From a virus, in the IMG/VR virus record IMGVR_UViG_3300045988_143098: a stretch of 59,008 nt of DNA. One strand, written 5' to 3'. The notes below the pieces were generated by a model. It ran no database searches, had not been told where the DNA came from, and saw nothing but the letters and a program-made list of their open reading frames with translations. Positions 27,458-40,743 of the stretch are shown one piece after another (the stretch's first letter is position 1; the number at the start of each line of letters is the position of its first letter). Both the position numbers and the translations under genes were made by a program.

Positions 27458-30247
27458 ATGAACCGTGTTAAGAATGATATTTTGATGCACTACGGACGGA
27501 GTGTCGACGACGGTGCTCCCGGTCCGGGTTCTGGTCGTTATCCAAAGGGTTCGGGAGAAGACCCAAATCAACATAGCATCAATTTCGCAGAGCGTGTTCA
27601 AGAACTGAAAAAAAGCGGCATGGACGAAAAAGACATTGCGAAAGCAGTCGGATGTAAAAGCACAACTGAACTTCGGTCTCTGTATAAAATCTCCATCAAT
27701 GATAAGCGTTCTCGACTTGTGGACCGTGCGATGGCACTGAAGGCAGATGGTAAAACTCGTTCGGAAATAGCAAGACTGATGGGCGTTGCCCCTTCTACAG
27801 TTGATTCCTATCTGAATGCTGATGCAGCAGCTCGTTCTGATAAAGCTAAAGTTGTTGCTGAATACATCAAGAAACAAGTCGATGAAAAGGGAATGGTTGA
27901 CGTCGGAAAAGGTACAGAAATATATTTGGGGATTTCTGAACCGAAATTGGGGGAAGCGCTCCAGCGTTTGAAGCTGGAAGGTTATATCATAGAAAAGCGC
28001 AGCGTCCCTCAGGGAGGCGTTGATAGTGCACATTCTACTACGATGCTAATAGCCTGCCGCCCTGACGATTACGACAAAACGAAAAAATACAATGACCCGA
28101 CCGCAATCAAAACCCTTGATATTGTTAGAGTTCGAGAGGACGAAAACGGGAATGACTTTATCACAAAGCCTTTTGAGTATCCGGCATCTATGGATTCCAG
28201 CCGTTTAGCGATTCGGTATGCCGAGGATGGTGGTAAAGAGAAAGACGGTGTTGTGGAAATTCGGCGTGGTCTTAAAGACCTAAATCTCGGCAATTCCAAT
28301 TATGCACAAGTCCGTATTCTCGTGGACGGAAATAGGTATATTAAAGGCATGTGCATGTACAGCGATGACCTGCCTGATGGAGTAGATTGTTTATTCAACA
28401 CGAATAAGTCGAAGGACGTCCCGAAACTTGAAGTATTGAAAGCAATCAAAAATGACCCAACTAATCCTTTTGGTGCGAATCTTCGTGAAGAGGGTGGGCA
28501 ATCCTACTACACGGGCGACGATGGGAAGCAACATCTCAACTTGATCAATAAAACAAGGGTTGAAGGCGACTGGGGTGCTTGGGAAGATAGCCTTAGTTCC
28601 CAATTCTTAAGTAAGCAACCCGTCAAGTTAATTAAACAGCAGCTCGATGCCGCTTTGGAAAATAAAAAGCAAGAATATAATGATATTCTTGCTCTTGAAT
28701 GTATTCCTGTCAAGCGAGCTCTACTCGAAGAATTCGCTGACTCGTGCTCTTCGGATTCCGTCGAACTCAAAGGTGCTGCTCTTCCGAGACAAAGATGGAA
28801 CGTAATATTGCCAGTGCCAACTCTAACCGATAACGAAGTGTACGCTCCGAATTTCAAGGATGGGGAAACTCTGGCTTTAATTCGATACCCTCACGCAGGA
28901 CAGTTTGAAATCGTTATTGCCAAGAATAACACAAAGCACTCTGATGGCGCACGATTGATTGGGAAAACCCCTGCTGATGCCATCGGAATTAGTCCCCATT
29001 CCGCCGAGAAACTATCTGGTGCTGACTTTGACGGCGATACTGTACTTGTAATCCCCTGTAATTCGCCAGACAACAAAGTGAAAATTCACGCAAAAGACTC
29101 TCTTCGTGGTCTTGAAGGATTCGACCCTAAGATGGAATACCCTGAGAGACCCGGCATGAAATACATGAAGCGCACTGAAATTGTTCGTGTAAAACAGAAG
29201 GATGGTTCTTATCGTGAATTTGAGAAGGAGATTAATCATACTGGCAAAGAAATGGGCATGATTTCCAATCTGATTACCGATATGACATTGAAGGGTGCCT
29301 CCGATGATGAATTAGCACGCGCAGTTAGACATAGCATGGTGGTAATTGACGCAGCAAAGCACAAGTTGGACTATGAACGGTCATTTCGAGACAACAGAAT
29401 TGCTGAGCTGAAGAAAAAATACCAAGGTCATTATACTGAAGACGGACGTTATAGCGAAGGTGCATCCACTTTGATTTCGAGGGCAAGTGCCGAAGCAACC
29501 ATACGAAAGCGAAAAGGAGCGCCGAAGACGGACCCCGAGACTGGCGACCAGATTTATAAGACTGACGATGAGTTTTATTACGACAAAAAGGGCAATAAAC
29601 ACTATCGTCAGGAAAAAACAACCCAAATGCAGACTGTCAAGGATGCCCATGCACTATCTACCGGACGGCAGGTAGAAGAGATATATGCCAACTATGCTAA
29701 TGCGTTGAAAGATATGGAACGTACAGCACGTTTGGAATTACTACATCCAATGAAATTGTGGCATGATAGTCAAGCTAAAAAAGAATATTCTGACGAAGTT
29801 CAATCACTTAAACGAAAACTAAACGATGCAAAAATGAATGCCCCGATTGAACGTCAGGCACAGCTTGCGGCCGCTGCAGTTGTAAAGGGTGCAGAATTAG
29901 ATAATCCGTTTATGTCCAAAGCTGAGAAAAAGAAGATGGGACAGAGAGCATTGAGTGCCGCTCGTCGTCGACTTGGCGCGCATCGTAGGCAGATTGATAT
30001 TACTGATAGAGAGTGGGAAGCCATCCAACGAGGTGCTATCAGTGACAATACGTTTCAAGAAATTTATAGGTTCTGCAATAAAGATGATGTTCGAGAACGT
30101 TCGACTCCTAAATCTCGCCGTATTTTGACGACAGCGCAGGAAGCCAAGATTCGCTCGATGAAGAACAGTGGTAAAACTACAGCCCAGATTGCTGATGCTC
30201 TTGGAGTTTCTGTCTCGACGGTCTCGAAAGTCATCAGCGGAAACTAA
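27458..30247 (+). CDS. single-polypeptide two-barrel RNA polymerase (YonO / cellular-RdRP-like) with N- and C-terminal HTH modules
   Basis: 929 aa. aa 280-322 SNYAQVRILVDGNRYIKGM...DLPDG...TNKSK. aa 472-531 LALIRYPH...AIGISPHSAEKLSGADFDGDTVLVIP (DFDGD = nt 29024-29038). aa 600-636 GMISNLITD...LARAVRHSMVVIDAAKHK. HTHs at aa 96-120 and 905-927. Confidence 0.7.
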   Translation: MNRVKNDILMHYGRSVDDGAPGPGSGRYPKGSGEDPNQHSINFAERVQELKKSGMDEKDIAKAVGCKSTTELRSLYKISINDKRSRLVDRAMALKADGKTRSEIARLMGVAPSTVDSYLNADAAARSDKAKVVAEYIKKQVDEKGMVDVGKGTEIYLGISEPKLGEALQRLKLEGYIIEKRSVPQGGVDSAHSTTMLIACRPDDYDKTKKYNDPTAIKTLDIVRVREDENGNDFITKPFEYPASMDSSRLAIRYAEDGGKEKDGVVEIRRGLKDLNLGNSNYAQVRILVDGNRYIKGMCMYSDDLPDGVDCLFNTNKSKDVPKLEVLKAIKNDPTNPFGANLREEGGQSYYTGDDGKQHLNLINKTRVEGDWGAWEDSLSSQFLSKQPVKLIKQQLDAALENKKQEYNDILALECIPVKRALLEEFADSCSSDSVELKGAALPRQRWNVILPVPTLTDNEVYAPNFKDGETLALIRYPHAGQFEIVIAKNNTKHSDGARLIGKTPADAIGISPHSAEKLSGADFDGDTVLVIPCNSPDNKVKIHAKDSLRGLEGFDPKMEYPERPGMKYMKRTEIVRVKQKDGSYREFEKEINHTGKEMGMISNLITDMTLKGASDDELARAVRHSMVVIDAAKHKLDYERSFRDNRIAELKKKYQGHYTEDGRYSEGASTLISRASAEATIRKRKGAPKTDPETGDQIYKTDDEFYYDKKGNKHYRQEKTTQMQTVKDAHALSTGRQVEEIYANYANALKDMERTARLELLHPMKLWHDSQAKKEYSDEVQSLKRKLNDAKMNAPIERQAQLAAAAVVKGAELDNPFMSKAEKKKMGQRALSAARRRLGAHRRQIDITDREWEAIQRGAISDNTFQEIYRFCNKDDVRERSTPKSRRILTTAQEAKIRSMKNSGKTTAQIADALGVSVSTVSKVISGN

Positions 30248-30755: not shown

Positions 30756-31112
30756 ATGGGAAAGCGATTAAAACCAATAGAAAATCATACAGAAACTCGC
30801 GTTCCGGCGGTTGACAGACCGTCGACGACACTGGAAGGGCGAGAGAATCAAGCGATTGAGCTTGCCGTGAACCTTGCTGTAGAGCAATTGCGGGCAGGTA
30901 CAGCTTCGTCGCAGGTGATTTGCCACTATCTTAAGCTGGGAACGACAAGAGAAAAGGCGGAACAGCAGTTACTCAAGAAGCAGCTGGAACTGATGGATGC
31001 GAAAATTCGGAATCTTCAGGATGCTTCCAACACTGCCGAACTGTATCAGAAGGCGCTGGAGGCTATGAATAGATATTCTGGTCGAAACGATTCTGATGAC
31101 GAAATTTACTAA
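30756..31112 (+). CDS. hypothetical; positional candidate for small terminase/DNA-recognition protein
   Basis: 118 aa, first gene of the late cluster; GGGAGA SD; helical, no firm motif. Confidence 0.3.
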   Translation: MGKRLKPIENHTETRVPAVDRPSTTLEGRENQAIELAVNLAVEQLRAGTASSQVICHYLKLGTTREKAEQQLLKKQLELMDAKIRNLQDASNTAELYQKALEAMNRYSGRNDSDDEIY

Positions 31113-31117
31113 GAGCT

Positions 31118-31537
31118 ATGGGACACATACGATGCTATTCGGAGCTGATTCAGATTCCGGACTATAAAGAACGCTTCGAGTATTTGAAACTTGGCGGGAT
31201 AGTCGGTGCAGAGACGTTCGGGCACAATAGATATTTGAACCAAATCTTCTACACGTCTCAGGAATGGCGACGTTTTCGGGATAAGATTATCATACGGGAC
31301 AACGGGTGCGATATGGGCGTAGACGGCTATGAGATAAATACCAGAGCAACTATCCACCACATCGAACCGATTTGTGTCAATGATATTTTGTACCAGAGCA
31401 GTCGACTATTTGATGAAGAGAACGTCATTTGTGTATCAAGCGAAACTCACAAGGCTATTCACTATGGGGATGCTGATTTGCTGGTGCTCCCCTTTGCCGA
31501 ACGAAAACCAAACGATATGTGCCCATGGCGGAAATGA
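31118..31537 (+). CDS. HNH endonuclease
   Basis: IHHIEP...N...VCVSSETHKAIHYG (H-N-H core). Confidence 0.85.
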   Translation: MGHIRCYSELIQIPDYKERFEYLKLGGIVGAETFGHNRYLNQIFYTSQEWRRFRDKIIIRDNGCDMGVDGYEINTRATIHHIEPICVNDILYQSSRLFDEENVICVSSETHKAIHYGDADLLVLPFAERKPNDMCPWRK

Positions 31538-31552
31538 TGGAGGTGATAACCA

Positions 31553-32272
31553 ATGCACGAGACAGCAATGAATGTCAGACTGATTCAGTACACGCCCTTA
31601 TGTGATGCTGCCGTTGCCCTTGGTGGAAAAATGTGCTACTCCGATGCAGACCTTGATGACATGATTCAAGGAGTGATTGATAAAGACAACTCTGCGATGA
31701 TTCGCCGGATTATCAATTCCGGTCATGAATCCGTATTGGAGCACGTTTCCTTTACGTTCGCCATTAGTGGGGTTTCACGGGCACTTCTTGCACAAATTAC
31801 ACGGCATCGTATGGCAAGTTTCAGTGTACGGAGTCAGCGGTATGTGAATTACGACAAGGGGTTTAACTACGTCATTCCCCCGGCTATTGAAAAACTTGGG
31901 GAGGATGCCATTGCCGAGTACCGCGCCCAGATGGAGCAGATGAACAAATGGTATCGGGAATGGACTGAGAAACTGGGTTCTGGTGAGAAGGCTAACGAAG
32001 ATGCAAGATTTGTCCTTCCAAATGCTTGCGAAACTTCTATGCTCGTCACCATGAATGCTCGTGAGCTTCGTCATTTCTTCGAGCTGAGAATGTGCCGTCG
32101 AGCCCAGTGGGAAATCAGAGCACTGGCAACAATTATGTGGACACTCTGCAAGAGCGAGTGCCCCGTACTATTTGAAGATGCTGGACCATCCTGCATCAGA
32201 GGGAAGTGCGCTGAAGGCAATAAGAGCTGTGGGAAACCTCTTAAGCATCAGTTGGAGACTTACGATGAATGA
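31553..32272 (+). CDS. thyX: flavin-dependent thymidylate synthase
   Basis: ThyX signature RHRMASFSVRSQRY. Confidence 0.95.
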   Translation: MHETAMNVRLIQYTPLCDAAVALGGKMCYSDADLDDMIQGVIDKDNSAMIRRIINSGHESVLEHVSFTFAISGVSRALLAQITRHRMASFSVRSQRYVNYDKGFNYVIPPAIEKLGEDAIAEYRAQMEQMNKWYREWTEKLGSGEKANEDARFVLPNACETSMLVTMNARELRHFFELRMCRRAQWEIRALATIMWTLCKSECPVLFEDAGPSCIRGKCAEGNKSCGKPLKHQLETYDE

Positions 32273-32621
32273 TAACAGCATTCTTGATACCATCAAGAAA
32301 CTTCTTGGCATCCAGAACGAAGCCTTTGATACAGACATCATCATTCATATCAACTCTACTTTCATGATTCTGCATCAATTAGGCATCGGACCCACAAACG
32401 GATTTCAAATCAGCGGTTCCACAGAGACATGGGAACAATTTATCGGAAATTCCTCGATACAACTATCTTCTATCAGAAGCTACGTTTACCTAAGAGTCAA
32501 AATGGTATTTGACCCAAGTGCCTCTTCTGTTGTTACAGAGAGTCTCGAACGTACATTGCGGGAATACGAATGGAGATTACAAGTTAATTCCGAGAGCGCG
32601 GTTTTGGAGAAGAATTCTTAA
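32265..32621 (+). CDS. hypothetical phage protein (118 aa), possibly structural
   Basis: ATG 32265 overlaps the thyX stop (ATGAATGA); in frame within track ORF 32172..32621. Confidence 0.65.
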   Translation: MNDNSILDTIKKLLGIQNEAFDTDIIIHINSTFMILHQLGIGPTNGFQISGSTETWEQFIGNSSIQLSSIRSYVYLRVKMVFDPSASSVVTESLERTLREYEWRLQVNSESAVLEKNS

Positions 32622-32695: not shown

Positions 32696-33298
32696 ATGGA
32701 TGAATCCAAACATGTGATTGTCCATTACGGCAAGCCCGGTATGCATTGGGGTGTGCGGCTATATCAAAATAGAGATGGCAGTCTGACACCACTTGGAAAA
32801 CAGAGATACGGGAAGGGTAAAGGAAACAACAATAACAGTGCTGTAAAAACTGTAACAATCAAAGCAAAAAAATTATTTTCTGTTGTATCCAAAAAGGTAA
32901 AAAAAGGTGTATCTTCTGTTGCCGAGAAGGTATCCGAACGCCACAAGATGAAAAATCCTGAAACCATGACCGATGAAGAGCTTAAAACCGTCGTCGACCG
33001 CCTACAAATGGAGAAGCGTTATCGAGACCTGATGAATGCGCGTGCTGAAGCTAATACAGGTGTCGGAAGAAAATTGGTAAAAAAACTACTTGCTAAGAGT
33101 GGCGATGCTGCGGTAGATGCGCTTGTGCAAGGACCCATTAGAAAGCGGTTCGATAATTTGTTCGCAAATCTTAATCCTAAAGATAAGCCGGGAAATAATT
33201 CCAATAATAACCGGCAGAATTCTACAAACAACAGCTCCTCGACTTCTTCCGATGCAAATAGCAGCAACTCTTCGTCGAGTTCCGATTCTGCATCTTGA
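32696..33298 (+). CDS. leader-tagged protein P1 (HYG..W.R.YQN.DGSLT..GKQRYG leader; Asn/Ser-rich tail)
   Basis: ATG 32696 after GAAGGGAGGG; VIVHYGKPGMHWGVRLYQNRDGSLTPLGKQRYGKG; C-terminal NNSNNNRQNSTNNSSSTSSD... Confidence 0.75.
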   Translation: MDESKHVIVHYGKPGMHWGVRLYQNRDGSLTPLGKQRYGKGKGNNNNSAVKTVTIKAKKLFSVVSKKVKKGVSSVAEKVSERHKMKNPETMTDEELKTVVDRLQMEKRYRDLMNARAEANTGVGRKLVKKLLAKSGDAAVDALVQGPIRKRFDNLFANLNPKDKPGNNSNNNRQNSTNNSSSTSSDANSSNSSSSSDSAS

Positions 33299-33403
33299 AA
33301 TAGCACTGGCGGGGGCGATAGCGGAAATCAAAGCAGCGGGCGTCGAAACCGCAATCAGCGGAATGCGCCAACTGAATAGCTATTCAGATAAGAGGTTTAA
33401 TAT

Positions 33404-35143
33404 ATGGCATTGTCGAACACCGCAGTACCAAAGTATTACGGCATGTTTCGTGATGCCGTACTGCGAGGGGAAATTCCAGTAAACCAAAACATCTCGATGG
33501 AGATGAATCGGATTGATGCGCTCATCGCGAATCCCGGTGTATACTATGACCCCGCGCCGGTTGAGGGATTTATTGCTTTCTGCGAAAATGAGATGACGCT
33601 GGTGGACGGCTCGGATCTGCATTTGCTCGATACTTTTAAGCTATGGGCAGAAGTGCTGTTGTGCTGGTTCACATTTGAGGAAATTACAGAATTCGTCCCG
33701 GATGATTACGGCGGACATTATGTGCGGAAGCGACGGAAGAAGCGACTCATTAACAAGCTCTTCCTCATCGTTGGGCGTGGCGCTGCCAAATCTCTGTTTG
33801 AAACATGCATTCACGCCTATATCGAGAATGTTGACACTTCCACGACGTACCAAATGACGACAGCACCGACAATGCGGCAAGCCGAGGAAGTGATGTCACC
33901 CTACAAAACGGCAATCGCTCGTGCCAGAGGTCCACTGTTTAAGTTTTTGACAGAAGGGTCATTGCAAAATACCACCGGTTCACGAGCAAAGCGATTGAAG
34001 CTGGCATCTACGAAGAAAGGCATAGAGAATTTTCTCACAAACTCTATTCTGGAAGTACGACCGATGTCGATTGATAGATTACAGGGTATGCGACCGGCTG
34101 TTGCTTCTGTTGACGAATGGCTGTCTGGCGACATGCGAGAAGACCCCATCGGCGCGATTGAGCAGGGTGCTTCCAAAGTCGACGACTACATTATCCTTGC
34201 TGTGAGTTCCGAAGGCACTGTCCGAAACGGGTGCGGTGACGACATCAAAATGGAACTCAAGAAAATCTTAAAAGGTGATTTCTTCGCTCCGAATGTCTCC
34301 ATTTGGTGGTATGCGTTGGACTCTGTGGATGAAGTTGCTGACCCAAACATGTGGCTAAAGGCGAACCCGAATATCGGCAAAACCATCAGCTACGAAGCAT
34401 ATCAGCGAGATGTTGAGCGTGCAGAGAATGTGCCGTCGGCGAGAAATGATATCCTTGCAAAACGATTCGGGATTCCGATGGAAGGCTACACTTATTTCTT
34501 CACCTACGAAGAGACCCTCCCTCAGCGAAAACGTGAATACTGGAAGATGCAATGTGCAATGGGTGCCGACCTGTCAAGAGGTGACGACTTCTGCTCGTTC
34601 ACATTTCTATTTCCGTTAAATAATGGATGTTTCGGCATCAAGAATCGAAGTTATATATCGGAGCTAACGTATCAGCAGCTTCCAAGAAGTCTGCGTGAAA
34701 AATATGACCTGTTCATCTGCGAAGGAACAATGGTTGTTATGGATGGCACTGTACTTGACTTGCTGAAGGTATATGCTGACCTCTATCAGTTCATCAACGA
34801 AAAACACTATGACATTCGCGCGTTTGGCTATGACCCTTGGAATGCAAAAGAGTTCGTCGCCCAATGGGAAATGGACTTTGGGTCTTACGGAAACGAGTCC
34901 GTCCAGCAGGGTTCAAGAACTGAATCCGTTCCGCTTGGCGAACTAAAGAAGATGGCCGAATCTCAATTGCTTTACTTTGACGAGGAAATCATCAAGTTCA
35001 CCATGGGAAACTGTGTTGTATTGACCGATACGAACGGAAACCGAAAGCTCTATAAACAACGCCACGACCAAAAGATTGATGCCATTTCTGCCCTTTTGGA
35101 CGCCTATGTAGCATATAAGCATCACAGGGAGTCATTCGATTAA
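33404..35143 (+). CDS. terL: terminase large subunit
   Basis: 579 aa; Walker-A-like LIVGRGAAKS, VASVDEW Walker B region, C-terminal nuclease-like half; position upstream of the portal. Confidence 0.9.
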   Translation: MALSNTAVPKYYGMFRDAVLRGEIPVNQNISMEMNRIDALIANPGVYYDPAPVEGFIAFCENEMTLVDGSDLHLLDTFKLWAEVLLCWFTFEEITEFVPDDYGGHYVRKRRKKRLINKLFLIVGRGAAKSLFETCIHAYIENVDTSTTYQMTTAPTMRQAEEVMSPYKTAIARARGPLFKFLTEGSLQNTTGSRAKRLKLASTKKGIENFLTNSILEVRPMSIDRLQGMRPAVASVDEWLSGDMREDPIGAIEQGASKVDDYIILAVSSEGTVRNGCGDDIKMELKKILKGDFFAPNVSIWWYALDSVDEVADPNMWLKANPNIGKTISYEAYQRDVERAENVPSARNDILAKRFGIPMEGYTYFFTYEETLPQRKREYWKMQCAMGADLSRGDDFCSFTFLFPLNNGCFGIKNRSYISELTYQQLPRSLREKYDLFICEGTMVVMDGTVLDLLKVYADLYQFINEKHYDIRAFGYDPWNAKEFVAQWEMDFGSYGNESVQQGSRTESVPLGELKKMAESQLLYFDEEIIKFTMGNCVVLTDTNGNRKLYKQRHDQKIDAISALLDAYVAYKHHRESFD

Positions 35144-35144
35144 C

Positions 35145-36164
35145 ATGAAAGATTTGAGAAAAGACAGAACATTTAGAGTGGATTTTTACCAAACGGCAAC
35201 AGAAAAGAATGGTCAGACTCAATGCTCTTCGTCAGGGAACGATTTAATCAATAATACAAATCGGAATTACGTTATCCATTACTGCGATGATATTTCGTCT
35301 TACCCATTAGAAAAGCAAAGAGAATCCAGTTATGTAATTGTTCATCACGGTATAAAAGGTCAACGATGGTATCATCGTCGTTACCAAAATCCAGATGGCA
35401 GTTTGACAGCTCTCGGAAAGCAGAGATATGGGAAGGGTAATGGAAGCAACGTGGATGGCGGGCTTTCAACTGTGTATGTCACAATCATTGCTGCTCATGC
35501 CGCCTGCTATGCTATTTCGCGCATTCGCAAGAGTCTGAAAGTCCGTTCAGCTATGCGACAGGCAAGTGAGATTTCCAACGACAAGGCATACGCTTCTGAG
35601 CGCCTAACAGAAAAAGTCGATTCAGAAACAGGATTATATCTTATTAACGAAAAAATGACAGAAGAAGAGAATATGAAACGCGTAAACCCCTCCTACGATA
35701 GCAAGAATCTGGCATTCGGAGTTAATTGCACTGCATGTACTGTATCCATGGAACTGCGGGAACGCGGATTTGATGTTCATGCAGGTATAGATGGAAGTAA
35801 GATGCTGAGTGCTGGTGGAACGACTATACCGGAGCGTATGAGTTGGTATACTGACAATCCGTACAAGAACACAAAGAGATACATCAGAAGTAAAAACAAT
35901 ATTGCAAAATTCCGACAAGAGATTTTGGGCGATGGTGACGCAAGAGGCGAGTTTTCAGTACAGTATATGGTAGGTGGTGGGCACTCTCTTTATTACAAAG
36001 TCAAAGATGGACAGCTTTATGTTTACGACACACAGTCAAATAAAAAAATGACTGACCCAGAACTGAATACTCTTCTTGCCTCTACATCGACATTTTCATA
36101 CACTCGCTTAGACCAAGCAAAACCGAATATTGACTATTTGAAGAGCCATAATTATATTTGCTGA
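35145..36164 (+). CDS. leader-tagged protein P2: leader + hydrophobic helix + papain-like Cys/His/Asp hydrolase (toxin/effector-like) domain
   Basis: aa 63-98 YVIVHHGIKGQRWYHRRYQNPDGSLTALGKQRYGKG. VYVTIIAAHAACYAI helix. VNPSYDS..GVNCTACTVSMELRERG ... GGGHSLYYKVKDGQLYVYDTQ. Confidence 0.65.
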   Translation: MKDLRKDRTFRVDFYQTATEKNGQTQCSSSGNDLINNTNRNYVIHYCDDISSYPLEKQRESSYVIVHHGIKGQRWYHRRYQNPDGSLTALGKQRYGKGNGSNVDGGLSTVYVTIIAAHAACYAISRIRKSLKVRSAMRQASEISNDKAYASERLTEKVDSETGLYLINEKMTEEENMKRVNPSYDSKNLAFGVNCTACTVSMELRERGFDVHAGIDGSKMLSAGGTTIPERMSWYTDNPYKNTKRYIRSKNNIAKFRQEILGDGDARGEFSVQYMVGGGHSLYYKVKDGQLYVYDTQSNKKMTDPELNTLLASTSTFSYTRLDQAKPNIDYLKSHNYIC

Positions 36165-36178
36165 AACCGGAGGATACA

Positions 36179-36415
36179 GTGAATCTCAACGAATTAAAAC
36201 GTCAGTTGGATAATGCTGGCGGCGATATTAAGGTAAAGTCGATTATTGATTATACGGAAAATAGTATAATCGTTGTCTACGAGTCTGGAGATACTATTCC
36301 CGGTATTATGTTTCAAATCAACAAGAAAACTGGAGAAACAACGCCTTTTAGGATTGCCGATGATTTGATAGGTTTTTCAAAAGCTGCAAAAAATCGTTCT
36401 ATAACTTTCACATAA
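36179..36415 (+). CDS. hypothetical small protein (78 aa); candidate immunity/partner of P2
   Basis: GTG 36179 is 5 nt after GGAGGA; in frame within track ORF 36158..36415. Confidence 0.55.
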   Translation: MNLNELKRQLDNAGGDIKVKSIIDYTENSIIVVYESGDTIPGIMFQINKKTGETTPFRIADDLIGFSKAAKNRSITFT

Positions 36416-36449
36416 GAGAAGTCGTAATTGCTTCGATGGAGGGGATAAA

Positions 36450-36731
36450 ATGTGCAACGACAAAATCAAAAAGAAAATTCAGCAGAAAGTTGCTGAATAT
36501 CTAAACAACAGACCAGCACAAAAAACAAATCTACGTCTATTCGTATCGGCGGATGAAATCACCACAGTAGACTTGCCATCCGTCAGCAGTCATCGGGTAA
36601 TTCTTGCGTATAATCCGCATTACACTGGAACACTCTTCATGTGTACGCTCATTCAAGAGCGTGATGAAATTCTAATGATGCCCTGCTTCAGACAGGAAAC
36701 CGTCGTGATTTCGGTAGGCGATGACTATTGA
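36450..36731 (+). CDS. hypothetical small protein (93 aa)
   Basis: GGAGGGG SD; track ORF. Confidence 0.65.
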   Translation: MCNDKIKKKIQQKVAEYLNNRPAQKTNLRLFVSADEITTVDLPSVSSHRVILAYNPHYTGTLFMCTLIQERDEILMMPCFRQETVVISVGDDY

Positions 36732-37144
36732 ACGAATTTTATCACTGGGGGATTCATGGTATGCGCTGGGGAATTCGACGATACCAGAATCCAGACGGCA
36801 CGCTAACACCTGCGGGGAAGAAACGTTATGGGGAGGCTCTTTCTAAAATCACCAGTGTAGACTGGGACAAGTATGCTGAGATTGGAAAAGAGAAAGCCGG
36901 TGTTTCCAGAGTTGACGCTAATACAGACATTATTAAACGGGGAAGCAGTATCAATCGTTATGCTACCTCTAACGAGACACTCGACTCGCGCAGAAAATAC
37001 GCATCATTGACAAATAATGACCGCGACTTATATAGGGACCAAATAGTTCTTGGCGGCATTGATTCTGATTTCGGCGAACCGATTTCTCTATTTGAATATG
37101 AAGCGAAAAAAAACTACGAATCGCAAGTGGAGAAAAGGTGGTAA
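36728..37144 (+). CDS. leader-tagged protein P3, N-terminal part (0 frame)
   Basis: TTG start overlapping the upstream stop; FYHWGIHGMRWGIRRYQNPDGTLTPAGKKRYG; contains the A8 tract 37106-37113. Confidence 0.7.
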   Translation: MNEFYHWGIHGMRWGIRRYQNPDGTLTPAGKKRYGEALSKITSVDWDKYAEIGKEKAGVSRVDANTDIIKRGSSINRYATSNETLDSRRKYASLTNNDRDLYRDQIVLGGIDSDFGEPISLFEYEAKKNYESQVEKRW

Positions 37145-37485
37145 ACGATTTAATTGATAGTTATGGCGACTCGTCAATACGAGAAATGTATGACTATGTT
37201 CATAAATATAGAAATACCGTGAACGGAATGAATCGCCGAACTGCCTCTAAGGTGCAAAAAGAAGCAGCTTCGTATGTGGAAAAATCATCGTCGACCCTTG
37301 ACAAGTTTTTTGCCGATGCAATGAAACTACACATGGATGACATCAGTAACAGATATTCTAAGGAAAAGTACGATGGTTTCGTTGATGCTGAAGATTGGGC
37401 AACGAAGTTCGCCGATTATCCTATCGTAATAATCAATCCCAAAGAGAGTATGAAATTGAAACGAAAAGAAGAAGTTTACTATTGA
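37138..37485 (+). CDS. hypothetical protein in the -1 frame; either an independent GTG start or the C-terminal part of P3 via frameshift
   Basis: -1 frame open from 37102 across the A_AAA_AAC site; GGAG lies 5 nt before GTG 37138. Confidence 0.6.
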   Translation: MVNDLIDSYGDSSIREMYDYVHKYRNTVNGMNRRTASKVQKEAASYVEKSSSTLDKFFADAMKLHMDDISNRYSKEKYDGFVDAEDWATKFADYPIVIINPKESMKLKRKEEVYY

Positions 37486-37787: not shown

Positions 37788-39032
37788 ATGGGAGTCTTAG
37801 ATAATCTGAAACACGCTTGGGACGTGTTCCGAAATCGCTCACCGACCTATGTTGATTTAGGCTACGGGAGCAGTTACCGACCAGATTGGCATGGTTTTAC
37901 GCGAGGTGTAGAGCGTTCCATTGTAACCTCGATTAACAACCGGATTGCGATGGATGTAGCGGCAATCTCGATTCAGCATGTAAAAGTAGATAGCAACGGG
38001 AGATTTCTCGACACGGTGAAATCCGGTTTGAATCAGTGCTTGACACAGAGTGCCAACATTGACCAGACCGGATTTTCTTTTCGTCTCGACATTGCAGCTT
38101 CCATGCTTGACGAGGGTTGTATCGCTATTGTACCCACCGAGGTGAACGAGAGACTTGATGCAGAACATGTATCAACTTATTCTATCAACTCGATGCGGGT
38201 CGGAAAAATTGTAGAGTGGTATCCCAAACATGTGCGCGTAAAGCTCTACAATGAAGAAACCGGTCAGCAGGAAGAAATCATTCTGCCAAAATCATATGTC
38301 GCCGTTGTTGAGAATCCATTCTATGCGGTGATGAATGAACCTAATGCGATTGCTCAGCGATTGATTAGGAAACTGAATATGCTCGATGCTATTGATGAGC
38401 AGACCAGTTCTGGGAAACTGGACATGATTATTCATCTCCCCTATTCTACTCGTGATACCCTCCGGCATGAACAGGCTGAAAAGCGAAAAGCTGAGTTGGA
38501 AGGACAACTCCGTAATTCCAAGTACGGTATTGCATGGCTCGACCAGACCGAAAAGATTACGCAGTTGAATCGACCTATTGAAAATAACATGCTGGAGCAA
38601 ATCGACTATCTGACGAACATGCTATATAGTCAGCTCAACATGACACAGAGCATCATGGATGGAACAGCGGACGAAAAAGTTATGCTGAATTATTACAATC
38701 GAACGGTCGAGCCGATTCTGACTGCCATTGTTGAGGCAATGCAGCGTACTTTTCTTACGAAAACCGCCATCTCGCAAGGGCAACGACTAATGTACTTCCG
38801 CAATACATTCAAGTTGACACCGGTCACACAAATTGCTGAAATTTCGGATAAGCTGACACGCAACGAAATTGCAACAGCAAATGAAATCCGACAAATCATC
38901 GGCTGGAAACCTGCTGACGACCCGAACGCCGACAAACTGAAGAATTCAAACATTAAAGGCTCGAATGAGGAACAAGACACCGTTCCTGCATTCCAGCCGA
39001 CTGAAGGAGAAAATCAAAATGGATACGAGTAA
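37788..39032 (+). CDS. portal protein
   Basis: 414 aa between terminase cluster and capsid; AAGGAGA SD; C-terminal ...TRNEIATANEIRQIIGWKP typical portal tail (memory). Confidence 0.8.
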   Translation: MGVLDNLKHAWDVFRNRSPTYVDLGYGSSYRPDWHGFTRGVERSIVTSINNRIAMDVAAISIQHVKVDSNGRFLDTVKSGLNQCLTQSANIDQTGFSFRLDIAASMLDEGCIAIVPTEVNERLDAEHVSTYSINSMRVGKIVEWYPKHVRVKLYNEETGQQEEIILPKSYVAVVENPFYAVMNEPNAIAQRLIRKLNMLDAIDEQTSSGKLDMIIHLPYSTRDTLRHEQAEKRKAELEGQLRNSKYGIAWLDQTEKITQLNRPIENNMLEQIDYLTNMLYSQLNMTQSIMDGTADEKVMLNYYNRTVEPILTAIVEAMQRTFLTKTAISQGQRLMYFRNTFKLTPVTQIAEISDKLTRNEIATANEIRQIIGWKPADDPNADKLKNSNIKGSNEEQDTVPAFQPTEGENQNGYE

Positions 39033-40743
39033 TTACGATTTTGCAGGATGGGCGACACGGAACAATGTGAAATGTTCTGACGGTCGCGTCATCATGCAAA
39101 ACGCTTTTCAGGGCAACAATGGGGCAATCGTCCCTCTGGTCTGGAATCATCAGCACGATAACCCAGACTGCGTTCTGGGGCAGGCACTGCTGGAAAACCG
39201 TCCGGAGGGTGTATATGCGTATTGTCGCTTCAATGGCACTGAATCCGGCAATACGGCAAAGGAGTTGGTGGAACACGGTGATGTTAGCTCGCTTTCCATC
39301 TTCGCCAATCAGCTGAAGGAACAGGGCAGCAACGTTCTTCATGGCAACATTCGTGAAGTCAGTCTTGTCCTTGCCGGTGCTAACCCCAAGGCATATATCG
39401 AGGATGTTTTTGCACATAGCGACGATGAGGAAGAAGACGGCATCCGGATTTATATGGGCGAACCGCTTACCTCGTTGAGCCACAGCGACACCCAGACCGA
39501 ATCGGATGAAAAACAGTCTGACGATACTAAGGACGACGACGAAACTGTCGGCGATGTGTTTAATTCGCTGACTGAGAAACAGAAAAAGGTTTTCTATTTC
39601 ATGCTTGCCAAAGCAATGAACGAAGAAAAAGCGGATGGCGAGGATGACGAAAATAAGGATACGAACAACAAGGAGGAAAACACGGTGAAGCACAATGTCT
39701 TCGACCAGACCACGGATGAAACGAATGGCGGCACGCTCTCCCATGATGCAATGAACGCCATTATCAAGGACACGAAGCGATTCGGAACGATGAAGGAAAG
39801 TTACCTTCAGCACGCGGACGAATACGGCATCGAGAACATCGAGTATCTGTTCCCGGAAGCCCACAATTTGAACGAAACGCCCGAATTCATCAAGCGCGAC
39901 ACTGGCTGGGTGAGCAAGGTTATGAGCGGTGTTCATCACAGCCCGTTCAGCCGAATCAAGAGCATGTTCGCGAACATCACGGAAGACCAAGCGCGTGCGA
40001 AGGGCTACATCAAGGGCAACCTGAAGAAGGACGAAGTCTTCAGTCTGCTTAAGCGAACGACGACCCCCACGACCGTCTACAAGAAGCAGAAGATTGACAA
40101 GGACGACTGGGATGATATTACTGACTTTAACGTTGTCAGCTGGCTGAAGACGGAAATGCGAATGATGCTGGATGAGGAACTGGCGCGTGCATATCTGCTT
40201 GGCGATGGTCGTTCGACTTCCGATGACGACAAGATTAATGAACAGAACATTCGCCCCGTTGCAAAAGATGAAGCGCTGTTCACAATTCAGAAGGCGGTTA
40301 ATGTTACTTCTAACGCAACGGACGATGATAAGGCTAAGGCGTTTATCAAGGCTGTCATTCGCTCCCGGAAGGAATACAAGGGTTCGGGCAATCCCACGCT
40401 GTACACCACGGAAGATATGCTCACTACCTGCCTGCTTCTGACCGACACGACTGGTCGCGACATTTATGAAGATGTCAACCAGCTCTGCAAGAAGCTCCGC
40501 GTGAAGGAAATCGTCACTGTTCCGGTGATGGAGAGCGTTAAGGCGAAGGATGGCAACGATATGCTGGCGATTTTGGTCAACATGAACGACTACAACGTTG
40601 GCGCAGACAAGGGCGGCAGTGTGAATATGTTCGACGACTTTGACATCGACTACAATCAGCAGAAGTTCCTGATGGAGACCCGCTGCTCTGGTGCACTGAC
40701 GAAGCCGTACTCTGCCATCGTTTACTCGCTGGTTGTCGCGTAA
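39019..40743 (+). CDS. prohead protease (HK97/S78-like) - acidic scaffold-like linker - major capsid protein fusion
   Basis: N-term VPLVWNHQHD...GDVSSLSIFAN...IREVSLVLAGANPKAYI. Acidic run aa ~135-215. HK97-fold-type MCP C-half (...ELARAYLLGDGRS...). Confidence 0.8.
   Translation: MDTSNYDFAGWATRNNVKCSDGRVIMQNAFQGNNGAIVPLVWNHQHDNPDCVLGQALLENRPEGVYAYCRFNGTESGNTAKELVEHGDVSSLSIFANQLKEQGSNVLHGNIREVSLVLAGANPKAYIEDVFAHSDDEEEDGIRIYMGEPLTSLSHSDTQTESDEKQSDDTKDDDETVGDVFNSLTEKQKKVFYFMLAKAMNEEKADGEDDENKDTNNKEENTVKHNVFDQTTDETNGGTLSHDAMNAIIKDTKRFGTMKESYLQHADEYGIENIEYLFPEAHNLNETPEFIKRDTGWVSKVMSGVHHSPFSRIKSMFANITEDQARAKGYIKGNLKKDEVFSLLKRTTTPTTVYKKQKIDKDDWDDITDFNVVSWLKTEMRMMLDEELARAYLLGDGRSTSDDDKINEQNIRPVAKDEALFTIQKAVNVTSNATDDDKAKAFIKAVIRSRKEYKGSGNPTLYTTEDMLTTCLLLTDTTGRDIYEDVNQLCKKLRVKEIVTVPVMESVKAKDGNDMLAILVNMNDYNVGADKGGSVNMFDDFDIDYNQQKFLMETRCSGALTKPYSAIVYSLVVA

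Follow-up and report, generated by a model that had tools for sequence, protein, structure and literature searches.

Why do three otherwise unrelated proteins, encoded around the large terminase (TerL) and ahead of the portal of one phage, carry the same short peptide near their N-termini? The question arose in a 59,008-nt stretch of viral DNA (IMG/VR record IMGVR_UViG_3300045988_143098; the whole stretch is called the window here), for which an original prediction, made from the letters alone, described a shared leader on the proteins P1, P2 and P3 and proposed that it targets diverse cargo to the capsid. On sequence evidence, this 33-residue motif, which we call the tag, is Pfam DUF7211 (PF23847), a 25-position model for a family of unknown function, and it is the hallmark of a family of small, basic accessory proteins that is hypervariable and has its genes within the head-gene block. 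Most likely, the tag marks proteins that travel inside the capsid, a role that we infer here. The motif had been catalogued already but not described, and its link to polyproteins and to the prohead protease appears to be new.

Six-frame translation and regular-expression scans of the window found exactly three copies of the tag, all on the plus strand and all in the proteins where the leader had been reported (Table 1). In a 40-residue alignment, 17 positions were invariant among the three copies (H, G, G, W, R, YQN, DG, LT, GK and RYG). The parts downstream of the tag fell into three separate BLAST clusters, so the description of the three proteins as otherwise unrelated stands. At the DNA level, the P1 and P2 tags were 84.1% identical over 69 nt (32762-32830 and 35382-35450), which agrees with the earlier estimate of about 85% over about 66 nt except that the P2 coordinates given with it were off by one base. 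The same codon encoded 19 of the 28 residues identical between P1 and P2, against 7 of 20 between P1 and P3. The DNA identity of P1 and P2 to P3 was just 53-55%, yet all the key residues were kept. These comparisons of codons and DNA argue that the tag is conserved overall at the protein level, with a putative recent duplication or conversion of the P1 and P2 tags on top of it.

Against the DUF7211 hidden Markov model (HMM; gathering cut-off 27 bits), the tags of P1 and P3 scored below the cut-off and that of P2 gave no match. We therefore relied on transitive homology. A profile from the three window tags, a search already suggested in the original prediction, was run exhaustively against the representatives of protein clusters at 50% identity; it matched 26,625 clusters at E<=1e-3 and 17,787 at E<=1e-10. 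Among the best 150 of the 26,625 matches, 150 of 150 exceeded the Pfam cut-off, and 69 of 72 cargo representatives from related loci matched DUF7211 at E<=0.001. By this chain of matches, the window tags are placed as divergent members of DUF7211. Compared with the column frequencies of 454 distinct instances, the core L-x-H-[HYW]-G-x-x-G-x-x-W-G-x-R-R-Y-Q-N-x-D-G-[ST]-L-T is present in the window tags, the exception being P2, where Y-H replaces G-V after the Trp. PHROG 32444 (unknown function) is common to all three window proteins. The literature held no paper on 'DUF7211' or on the motif strings, which returned unrelated papers only; the earlier statement that no function had been assigned was correct, yet Pfam had already catalogued the motif. 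A PDB sequence search with the tag gave a chance match only and no solved structure holding the motif, and no nucleic-acid-binding family matched the tag in Pfam or in that search. The tag has a net charge of +5. AlphaFold2 (AF2), with 37 homologues, modelled it as a beta-hairpin followed by a helix at a mean predicted local distance difference test score (pLDDT) of 64, a modest confidence suggesting that the tag probably folds on a partner.

Several variants of the tag were also seen. In a shorter form, HHGIKGQKWGV is followed by '(R/K)NGPPYPL' instead of 'RRYQNxDGSLT' (P0208-P0210; L098 2774-4474; L120 4714-5364). Some proteins end in the tag with no cargo behind it, and tag-only open reading frames (ORFs) of 43-70 residues exist, some on contigs of about 56 kb (both kinds taken together: P0044, P0062, P0130; P0001-P0035; L026 5348-6163). 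A word-indexed protein search with a 40-residue profile had returned only proteins of this size and was replaced by the exhaustive search above. The cargo-less tags and tag-only ORFs may be truncated genes, frameshifts or real mini-proteins.

We then examined where the tag genes lie in 126 related loci, 77 from IMG/VR and 49 from bacterial genomes (these included Christensenellaceae, Oscillospiraceae, Lachnospiraceae, Ruminococcus and Blautia, and some of the contigs were mis-binned). The tag lay within the first 30 residues in 249 of 274 distinct tag ORFs, all of which were on the strand of TerL, the portal and the other structural genes, with one to nine per locus. The gene order was constant: YonO-like polymerase, connector, tag gene(s), TerL, tag gene(s), portal, protease::capsid fusion. 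In nearly every locus where this region was covered, tag genes adjoined TerL upstream of the portal and the fusion, a synteny that bears out their earlier placement within the head and packaging module; a few loci had tag genes without any such neighbours in the retrieved stretch. Because every TerL found in these loci was 61-71% identical to that of the window, the DUF7211 family looks specific to one large lineage, which resembles Faecalibacterium phage FP_oengus. The window itself is a temperate phage, with an integrase, NrdD, a polymerase-primase, a helicase and a YonO-like RNA polymerase, and its TerL and portal are 65% and 54% identical to those of FP_oengus. FP_oengus, an inducible prophage, was the only cultured phage found to bear the motif, in the protein gp69 encoded directly upstream of the portal. 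The lineage consists of temperate siphophages that infect gut Clostridia. When the region was compared with GenBank phages by megablast, no match was returned, and tblastn with the P1 cargo gave none either; tblastn with P3 and a consensus tag led to FP_oengus and to contigs of uncultured 'Bacteriophage sp.', and beyond these to no more than two weak Streptomyces phage matches.

What follows the tag is highly diverse. The 77 IMG/VR loci, together with FP_oengus and the window, supplied 160 cargo sequences, which fell into 72 clusters. Among them were GNAT acetyltransferases, a peptidoglycan hydrolase resembling PG_binding/SleB, helix-turn-helix (HTH) and sigma-like domains, a XopAD-like repeat protein and the papain-fold 'Gln_amidase' domain of P2. 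The view that one conserved N-terminal module heads many unrelated domains is upheld by this census, and so is the effector-like character of the cargo, which includes a toxin-like papain-fold enzyme with an immunity-like neighbour besides the acetyltransferases, peptidoglycan hydrolases and HTH domains. The commonest class, cluster 0, contains the P1 cargo and made up 53 of the 160 sequences, 32 of the 53 being encoded directly upstream of TerL; its members share a conserved 'MSDxELRxRxNRLxLExQY' helix and usually have a Gly/Ala-rich hydrophobic C-terminal helix. An isoelectric point above 9 was found for 92% of the tag proteins. PHROG 35934 ('virion structural protein') matched 8 of the 72 cargo representatives, and in gp69 of FP_oengus, which was scanned separately, the match to this PHROG covers the tag region.

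The connection with the capsid came from proteins that carry more than one tag. Each of the best 150 of the 26,625 profile matches had two to five tags, the first being N-terminal in nearly all of them. Such proteins are tag-cargo units joined head to tail, with tags 130-400 residues apart, i.e. not in tandem, unlike CW-binding or YD/Rhs hairpin repeats; no CW_binding or RHS repeat model matched the window proteins in Pfam at E<=1. One example, P0037, has 1335 residues and five tags and fills the gap between TerL and the portal, replacing the gene cluster. On three independent contigs, its reading frame stays open from end to end in the standard code, which rules out recoding or assembly artefacts as the source of the polyproteins. 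The dipeptide H-[SADTGN] occurred 5-25 residues upstream of 79% of the internal tags, compared with a background of 19%. The consensus at these junctions was [LIVMA]-[KR]-H-S-D, its spacing to the tag equals the distance from the Met to the tag in stand-alone proteins, and the pattern was also present in loci seen in their genomic context.

The same motif was found in the protein that builds the capsid. In this lineage, an acidic linker (net charge -20) joins an S78 prohead protease to an HK97-type major capsid protein; in the window, the annotated ATG of the fusion is probably 18 codons early, the likely true start being M19 (39019), as in relatives. An alignment of 46 fusions, 38-62% identical, revealed five conserved His residues within the otherwise variable linker, each in a phi-x-H-[GSADN] context (Table 1). 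The last of them, H283, lies about 50 residues before the HK97-type Pfam capsid match, which begins at residue 336. Some candidate linker sites have Gln instead of His. When a weight matrix was built from 211 capsid-linker sites, the junction His residues scored far above other His residues (Mann-Whitney p=3e-43), and the pairing of junction and linker motifs was also seen within one contig. The simplest reading is that both are putative prohead-protease cut sites (phi-x-His, then Ser/Gly/Ala/Asp). If they are, the polyproteins would be cut by the prohead protease inside proheads, which would place tag proteins in the capsid. This supports, indirectly, the earlier idea that these proteins come within reach of the capsid-fused protease.

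The same sites speak against a detachable leader that is cleaved from its cargo, as the original prediction had it. The candidate cuts at polyprotein junctions lie upstream of the tags and are essentially absent between tag and cargo, which argues that the tag is kept on the product. In stand-alone tag proteins, candidate sites occurred at only 0.07 per 100 residues, about half of them before a second tag. We draw no claim of selection against protease sites from site densities, since that comparison is confounded by Y-H-H-G inside the tag, which itself fits the pattern.

Candidate sites near C-termini were observed in two proteins. The gp69 of FP_oengus (L001 8986-9633) ends in ...TMKVH-SE, with a candidate cut site two residues from its C-terminus, and at the end of the five-unit P0037 a truncated tag prefix comes after a candidate site (...SASH-AAFIEDGTLRLEY...).

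Taken together, these observations led us to a model, to which we give an even chance, in which the DUF7211 tag recruits cargo into the procapsid, the protease cuts the polyproteins and the cargo is ejected with the DNA. The positively charged tag would bring whatever is fused behind it into the procapsid, its likely partner being a part of the capsid subunit itself, either the acidic, scaffold-like linker or the protease domain that each subunit carries. The capsid-fused protease would then degrade the linker and split polyproteins at phi-x-His, before Ser, Gly, Ala or Asp, just upstream of each tag, so that each freed unit would start about 10 residues before its own tag. The basic, tag-headed units would remain with the DNA and be carried along with it into the next cell at infection. 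Since cutting would restore an N-terminal tag on every unit, a further role of the tag after maturation is probable, which may be retention on the DNA, exit through the portal and tail, or an action inside the next host. A bolder version, which we regard as rather doubtful, makes DUF7211 a universal encapsidation tag of this very large phage lineage of gut Clostridia that works as a non-cleavable pseudo-substrate. Here the invariant L-x-His of the tag would mimic P3-P1 of the phi-x-His/Ser site, with a bulky aromatic residue (P1') and Gly following, and the protease domain on every capsid subunit would accept the tag in its active site. Loading would then extend to any fused cargo, toxins with immunity partners among it, and possibly to the YonO-like RNA polymerase, whose N-terminus begins with the same L-x-H-Y-G.

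The closest working analogy would be the capsid-targeting sequence (CTS) of phage T4, a weakly conserved N-terminal peptide of about 10 residues on the internal proteins IPI-III and Alt, which the prohead protease gp21 removes after loading and which also allows foreign proteins to be loaded by fusion (PMC9026906). Both are short N-terminal peptides on diverse basic proteins, and those of T4 are head-internal, non-essential and ejected with the DNA (PMC9026906); the basic charge of the tag proteins parallels that of the T4 internal proteins (PMC9026906). The N-terminal position is shared by the great majority of the tag ORFs counted above, as far as the genes go, a head-internal location of their products being a prediction of the model. 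Unlike the CTS, to which it has no sequence relationship, the tag spans about 33 residues, is nearly invariant and has its candidate cuts upstream, so that it would be kept; removal just after the signal, as in T4, was not seen.

A second parallel is the MuF polymorphic toxins of temperate Firmicute phages, whose genes lie beside the portal in the packaging module and for which delivery by phage has been proposed (PMC5576092). They combine a conserved N-terminal module with a variable C-terminal toxin domain and are abundant in the human gut (PMC5576092). The tag genes likewise join a conserved N-terminal module to variable domains and abound in the human gut, and P2 has a toxin-like domain with an immunity-like ORF behind it. 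The likeness to SPP1 gp7 and MuF proteins drawn in the original prediction holds for position, as the tag genes adjoin the portal in the packaging module, but not for homology, since no MuF family was among the Pfam matches listed for P1-P3, the 150 multi-tag proteins and the 72 cargo representatives, the lists for the two larger sets being confined to the families matched by most members. The MuF domain is a portal-associated domain of about 300 residues, whereas the tag is a 33-residue motif, and tag genes occur several per genome and can form polyproteins.

Three other systems would be looser parallels. The Dar anti-restriction proteins of phage P1 and the ejection proteins of giant phages such as SPN3US are reported to be built into heads during morphogenesis and to enter the cell with the DNA, those of SPN3US being processed by the prohead protease (PMC12810830, PMC10052503). 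The hosts and lineages of these phages differ from those of the DUF7211 phages. Loading of the Dar and SPN3US proteins depends on specific partner proteins, and we know of no common portable tag in either system. The polyvalent proteins of phages and conjugative elements (Iyer, Aravind and colleagues, 2017) reportedly string several effector domains together in one polypeptide, and they are presumed to reach the recipient along with the DNA and to be cut apart by proteases. The tag polyproteins differ from them in that each unit has its own tag, the motif at the junctions is that of the putative capsid maturation sites, and they contain no dedicated peptidase domain.

Several points weigh against the capsid-cargo model. 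We found no virion proteome of any tag-bearing phage, and neither Faecalibacterium phage paper contains mass spectrometry. Cleavage after His by the S78 prohead protease is deduced from conservation alone. Candidate sites were not depleted in the portal and the RNA polymerase, so the model gains no signal of site avoidance. The tag is far more conserved than the T4 CTS, the only capsid-targeting peptide compared, and is not removed. Its AF2 confidence was modest. The loci were retrieved with patterns taken from this window, so the restriction to one lineage may be overstated. Finally, 62 of 264 tag proteins have a hydrophobic, transmembrane (TM)-like helix, which would equally suit a role in the membrane of the producing cell.

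The proteins may be encapsidated while something else loads them, the tag being a post-assembly peptide that binds or condenses DNA, or a signal for N-terminus-first exit through the portal and tail. The retention of the tag, together with its reappearance at the N-terminus of every unit cut from a polyprotein, points to such a function after proteolysis, and both the tag and the whole proteins are strongly basic. Nevertheless, the tag matches no nucleic-acid-binding family. It is moreover the only element common to 72 unrelated cargo classes, which makes it the simplest candidate for any step that they share, loading included, and we consider this alternative unlikely. We are a little more sceptical of the idea that the proteins are not in virions at all and that DUF7211 is the cytoplasmic N-terminal domain of late membrane or envelope proteins acting in the producing cell, e.g. 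in superinfection exclusion, lysis control or cell-wall remodelling. A basic tag ahead of the TM-like helices counted above fits the positive-inside rule, the order of P2 is tag, helix and papain-fold domain, and one cargo resembles peptidoglycan hydrolases. However, a hydrophobic helix is missing from most of the cargo, which appears cytosolic (GNAT, HTH and sigma-like domains), the genes are interleaved with those for the connector, TerL, portal and capsid, and a membrane role leaves the copy of the capsid-linker motif at the junctions unexplained.

It is very unlikely that the tag serves mainly as a recombination handle, i.e. a shared 5' sequence for homologous exchange of accessory cassettes whose peptide has little function. 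The 84% DNA identity and shared codons of the P1 and P2 tags would fit this, and close relatives do differ by whole cassettes, with a swapped P3 cargo of 49% identity lying between flanks that are 94-97% identical in DNA. Yet conservation is at the protein level, as the divergent DNA of the P3 tag shows, the 17 invariant residues persist over thousands of clusters, and the P2 cassette has one breakpoint at the stop codon of TerL and the other ahead of the ORF that follows, neither of them inside a tag. Least probable of all is that the P1-type protein serves in DNA packaging, as the missing small terminase or as some other factor, with DUF7211 as a TerL- or portal-binding peptide: no small terminase was identified, P1-type genes often lie directly upstream of TerL and one multi-tag protein matches a small-terminase Pfam family, but in FP_oengus TerL is not preceded by a tag gene, neither the number nor the position of P1-type genes is constant, P1 matches no HTH or terminase family in Pfam or PHROG, and enzymes and toxins are headed by the tag as well.

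If the capsid-cargo model is true, one 33-residue peptide would account for tens of thousands of unannotated protein clusters of the gut virome as phage-delivered effectors. Temperate phages of key commensals (Faecalibacterium, Christensenellaceae, Lachnospiraceae) would bring toxins, acetyltransferases and wall hydrolases into cells before gene expression. The tag would then offer a portable signal and delivery handle for packaging engineered proteins into phages of hard-to-manipulate anaerobes such as Faecalibacterium and its relatives, and the putative His-specific cut by a capsid-fused S78 protease would be a new specificity.

A variable toxin domain with a small immunity gene behind it comes into question for P2 only. 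No start codon is available near the P2 tag; a start there was rejected, and the N-terminal extension of about 62 residues is therefore real. The triad C195/H280/D295 is invariant in P2 and its relatives. The Pfam family Gln_amidase ('Papain fold toxin 1') matched P2 at E=7e-4 and relatives at 8.6e-9 and 4e-8, and AF2 modelled the C-terminal domain with a pLDDT of 80-95. Foldseek with this model returned papain-like effectors and toxins as weak matches below significance. From sequence and model, the C-terminal papain-fold domain looks toxin-like. P2 and the 85-residue ORF that follows it form a cassette (35142-36467) absent from three close relatives, L003, L004 and L046. An ORF of 82-92 residues followed P2-like genes in 7 of 11 distinct cases, and several of these ORFs share, by eye, a '..NK.TGE'-like motif. 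The layout of P2 and its neighbour looks like that of a toxin-immunity pair, both members being candidates.

P1 starts at the ATG at 32696, which is preceded by a GGGAGGG ribosome-binding site, and P3 at a TTG (36728) that overlaps the stop codon of the ORF before it. The original prediction placed P3 at 36728..37144, which encodes 138 residues. This was corrected, as the intact protein has 252 residues and is a single ORF in L005 and L002 (99-100% identity), the split in the window being a frameshift due to one A missing from a homopolymer. The shortened run could be an assembly error, a pseudogene or slippage. In L004, the P3-like gene is split too, at another place.

The RNA polymerase had been thought to be headed by a degenerate copy of the tag. 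It gave no significant match to the tag HMM, which ruled it out as a tag carrier, and its N-terminus has a separate conserved motif, L-x-HYG-x-x-R-x-SGRYPWGSG-x-NP-x-QH-[SG], sharing only the L-x-H-Y-G start with the tag and matching nothing in Pfam. This motif often ends in Q-H-S/G, which resembles a candidate cut site; some homologues have Arg in place of this His or lack it.

Table 1. Positions of the tags, the genes around them and the conserved linker His residues in the window.
Feature	Position	Strand	Remarks
YonO-like RNA polymerase, N-terminal motif	27479..27574	+	ILMHYG...GSGRYPKGSGEDPNQH; conserved in 14 distinct homologues
Connector	32268..32621	+	Conserved left neighbour of tag genes; Pfam Phage_connect_2 E=1e-34; synteny
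P1, 200 aa	32696..33298	+	Tag, basic region, 'MTDEELKxxVDRLQMEKRY' helix, Asn/Ser-rich tail; PHROG 32444/7021/24711
P1 tag	32717..32812	+	Residues 8-39, IVHYGKPGMHWGVRLYQNRDGSLTPLGKQRYG; Pfam DUF7211 20.6 bits, below 27-bit cut-off
Large terminase TerL	33404..35143	+	Tag genes on both sides here and in nearly all related loci
P2, 339 aa	35145..36164	+	62-residue N-extension, tag, long hydrophobic helix, papain-fold Cys/His/Asp domain
P2 tag	35337..35432	+	Residues 65-96, IVHHGIKGQRWYHRRYQNPDGSLTALGKQRYG
85-residue ORF, candidate immunity protein	36158..36415	+	Overlaps P2 end
P3, 252 aa in relatives	36728..37485	+	Split here into 36728..37144 and 37138..37485
P3 tag	36737..36832	+	Residues 4-35, FYHWGIHGMRWGIRRYQNPDGTLTPAGKKRYG; Pfam DUF7211 22.3 bits
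Homopolymer A8	37106..37113	+	A9 in near-identical relatives L005 and L002
Portal protein	37788..39032	+	Pfam Phage_portal E=5e-18; PHROG 12
S78 prohead protease fused via acidic linker to HK97-type major capsid protein	38965..40743	+	Pfam, PHROG
Linker H151	codon 39415	+	100% conserved (46 fusions)
Linker H173	codon 39481	+	100% conserved (46 fusions)
Linker H243	codon 39691	+	87% conserved (46 fusions)
Linker H260	codon 39742	+	72% conserved (46 fusions)
Linker H283	codon 39811	+	100% conserved (46 fusions)

Some neighbouring genes also deserve mention. No small terminase was recognised in the window; a candidate is the coiled-coil ORF at 30756..31112 (PHROG 4259, unknown), beside an HNH endonuclease (31118..31537). 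The connector gene is found ahead of TerL and not behind the capsid gene. The ORF at 31553-32272 has, by eye, an RHR...S...S.RY signature resembling the flavin-dependent thymidylate synthase ThyX, and at the 3' end it overlaps with the connector ORF if the latter is read at its longest.

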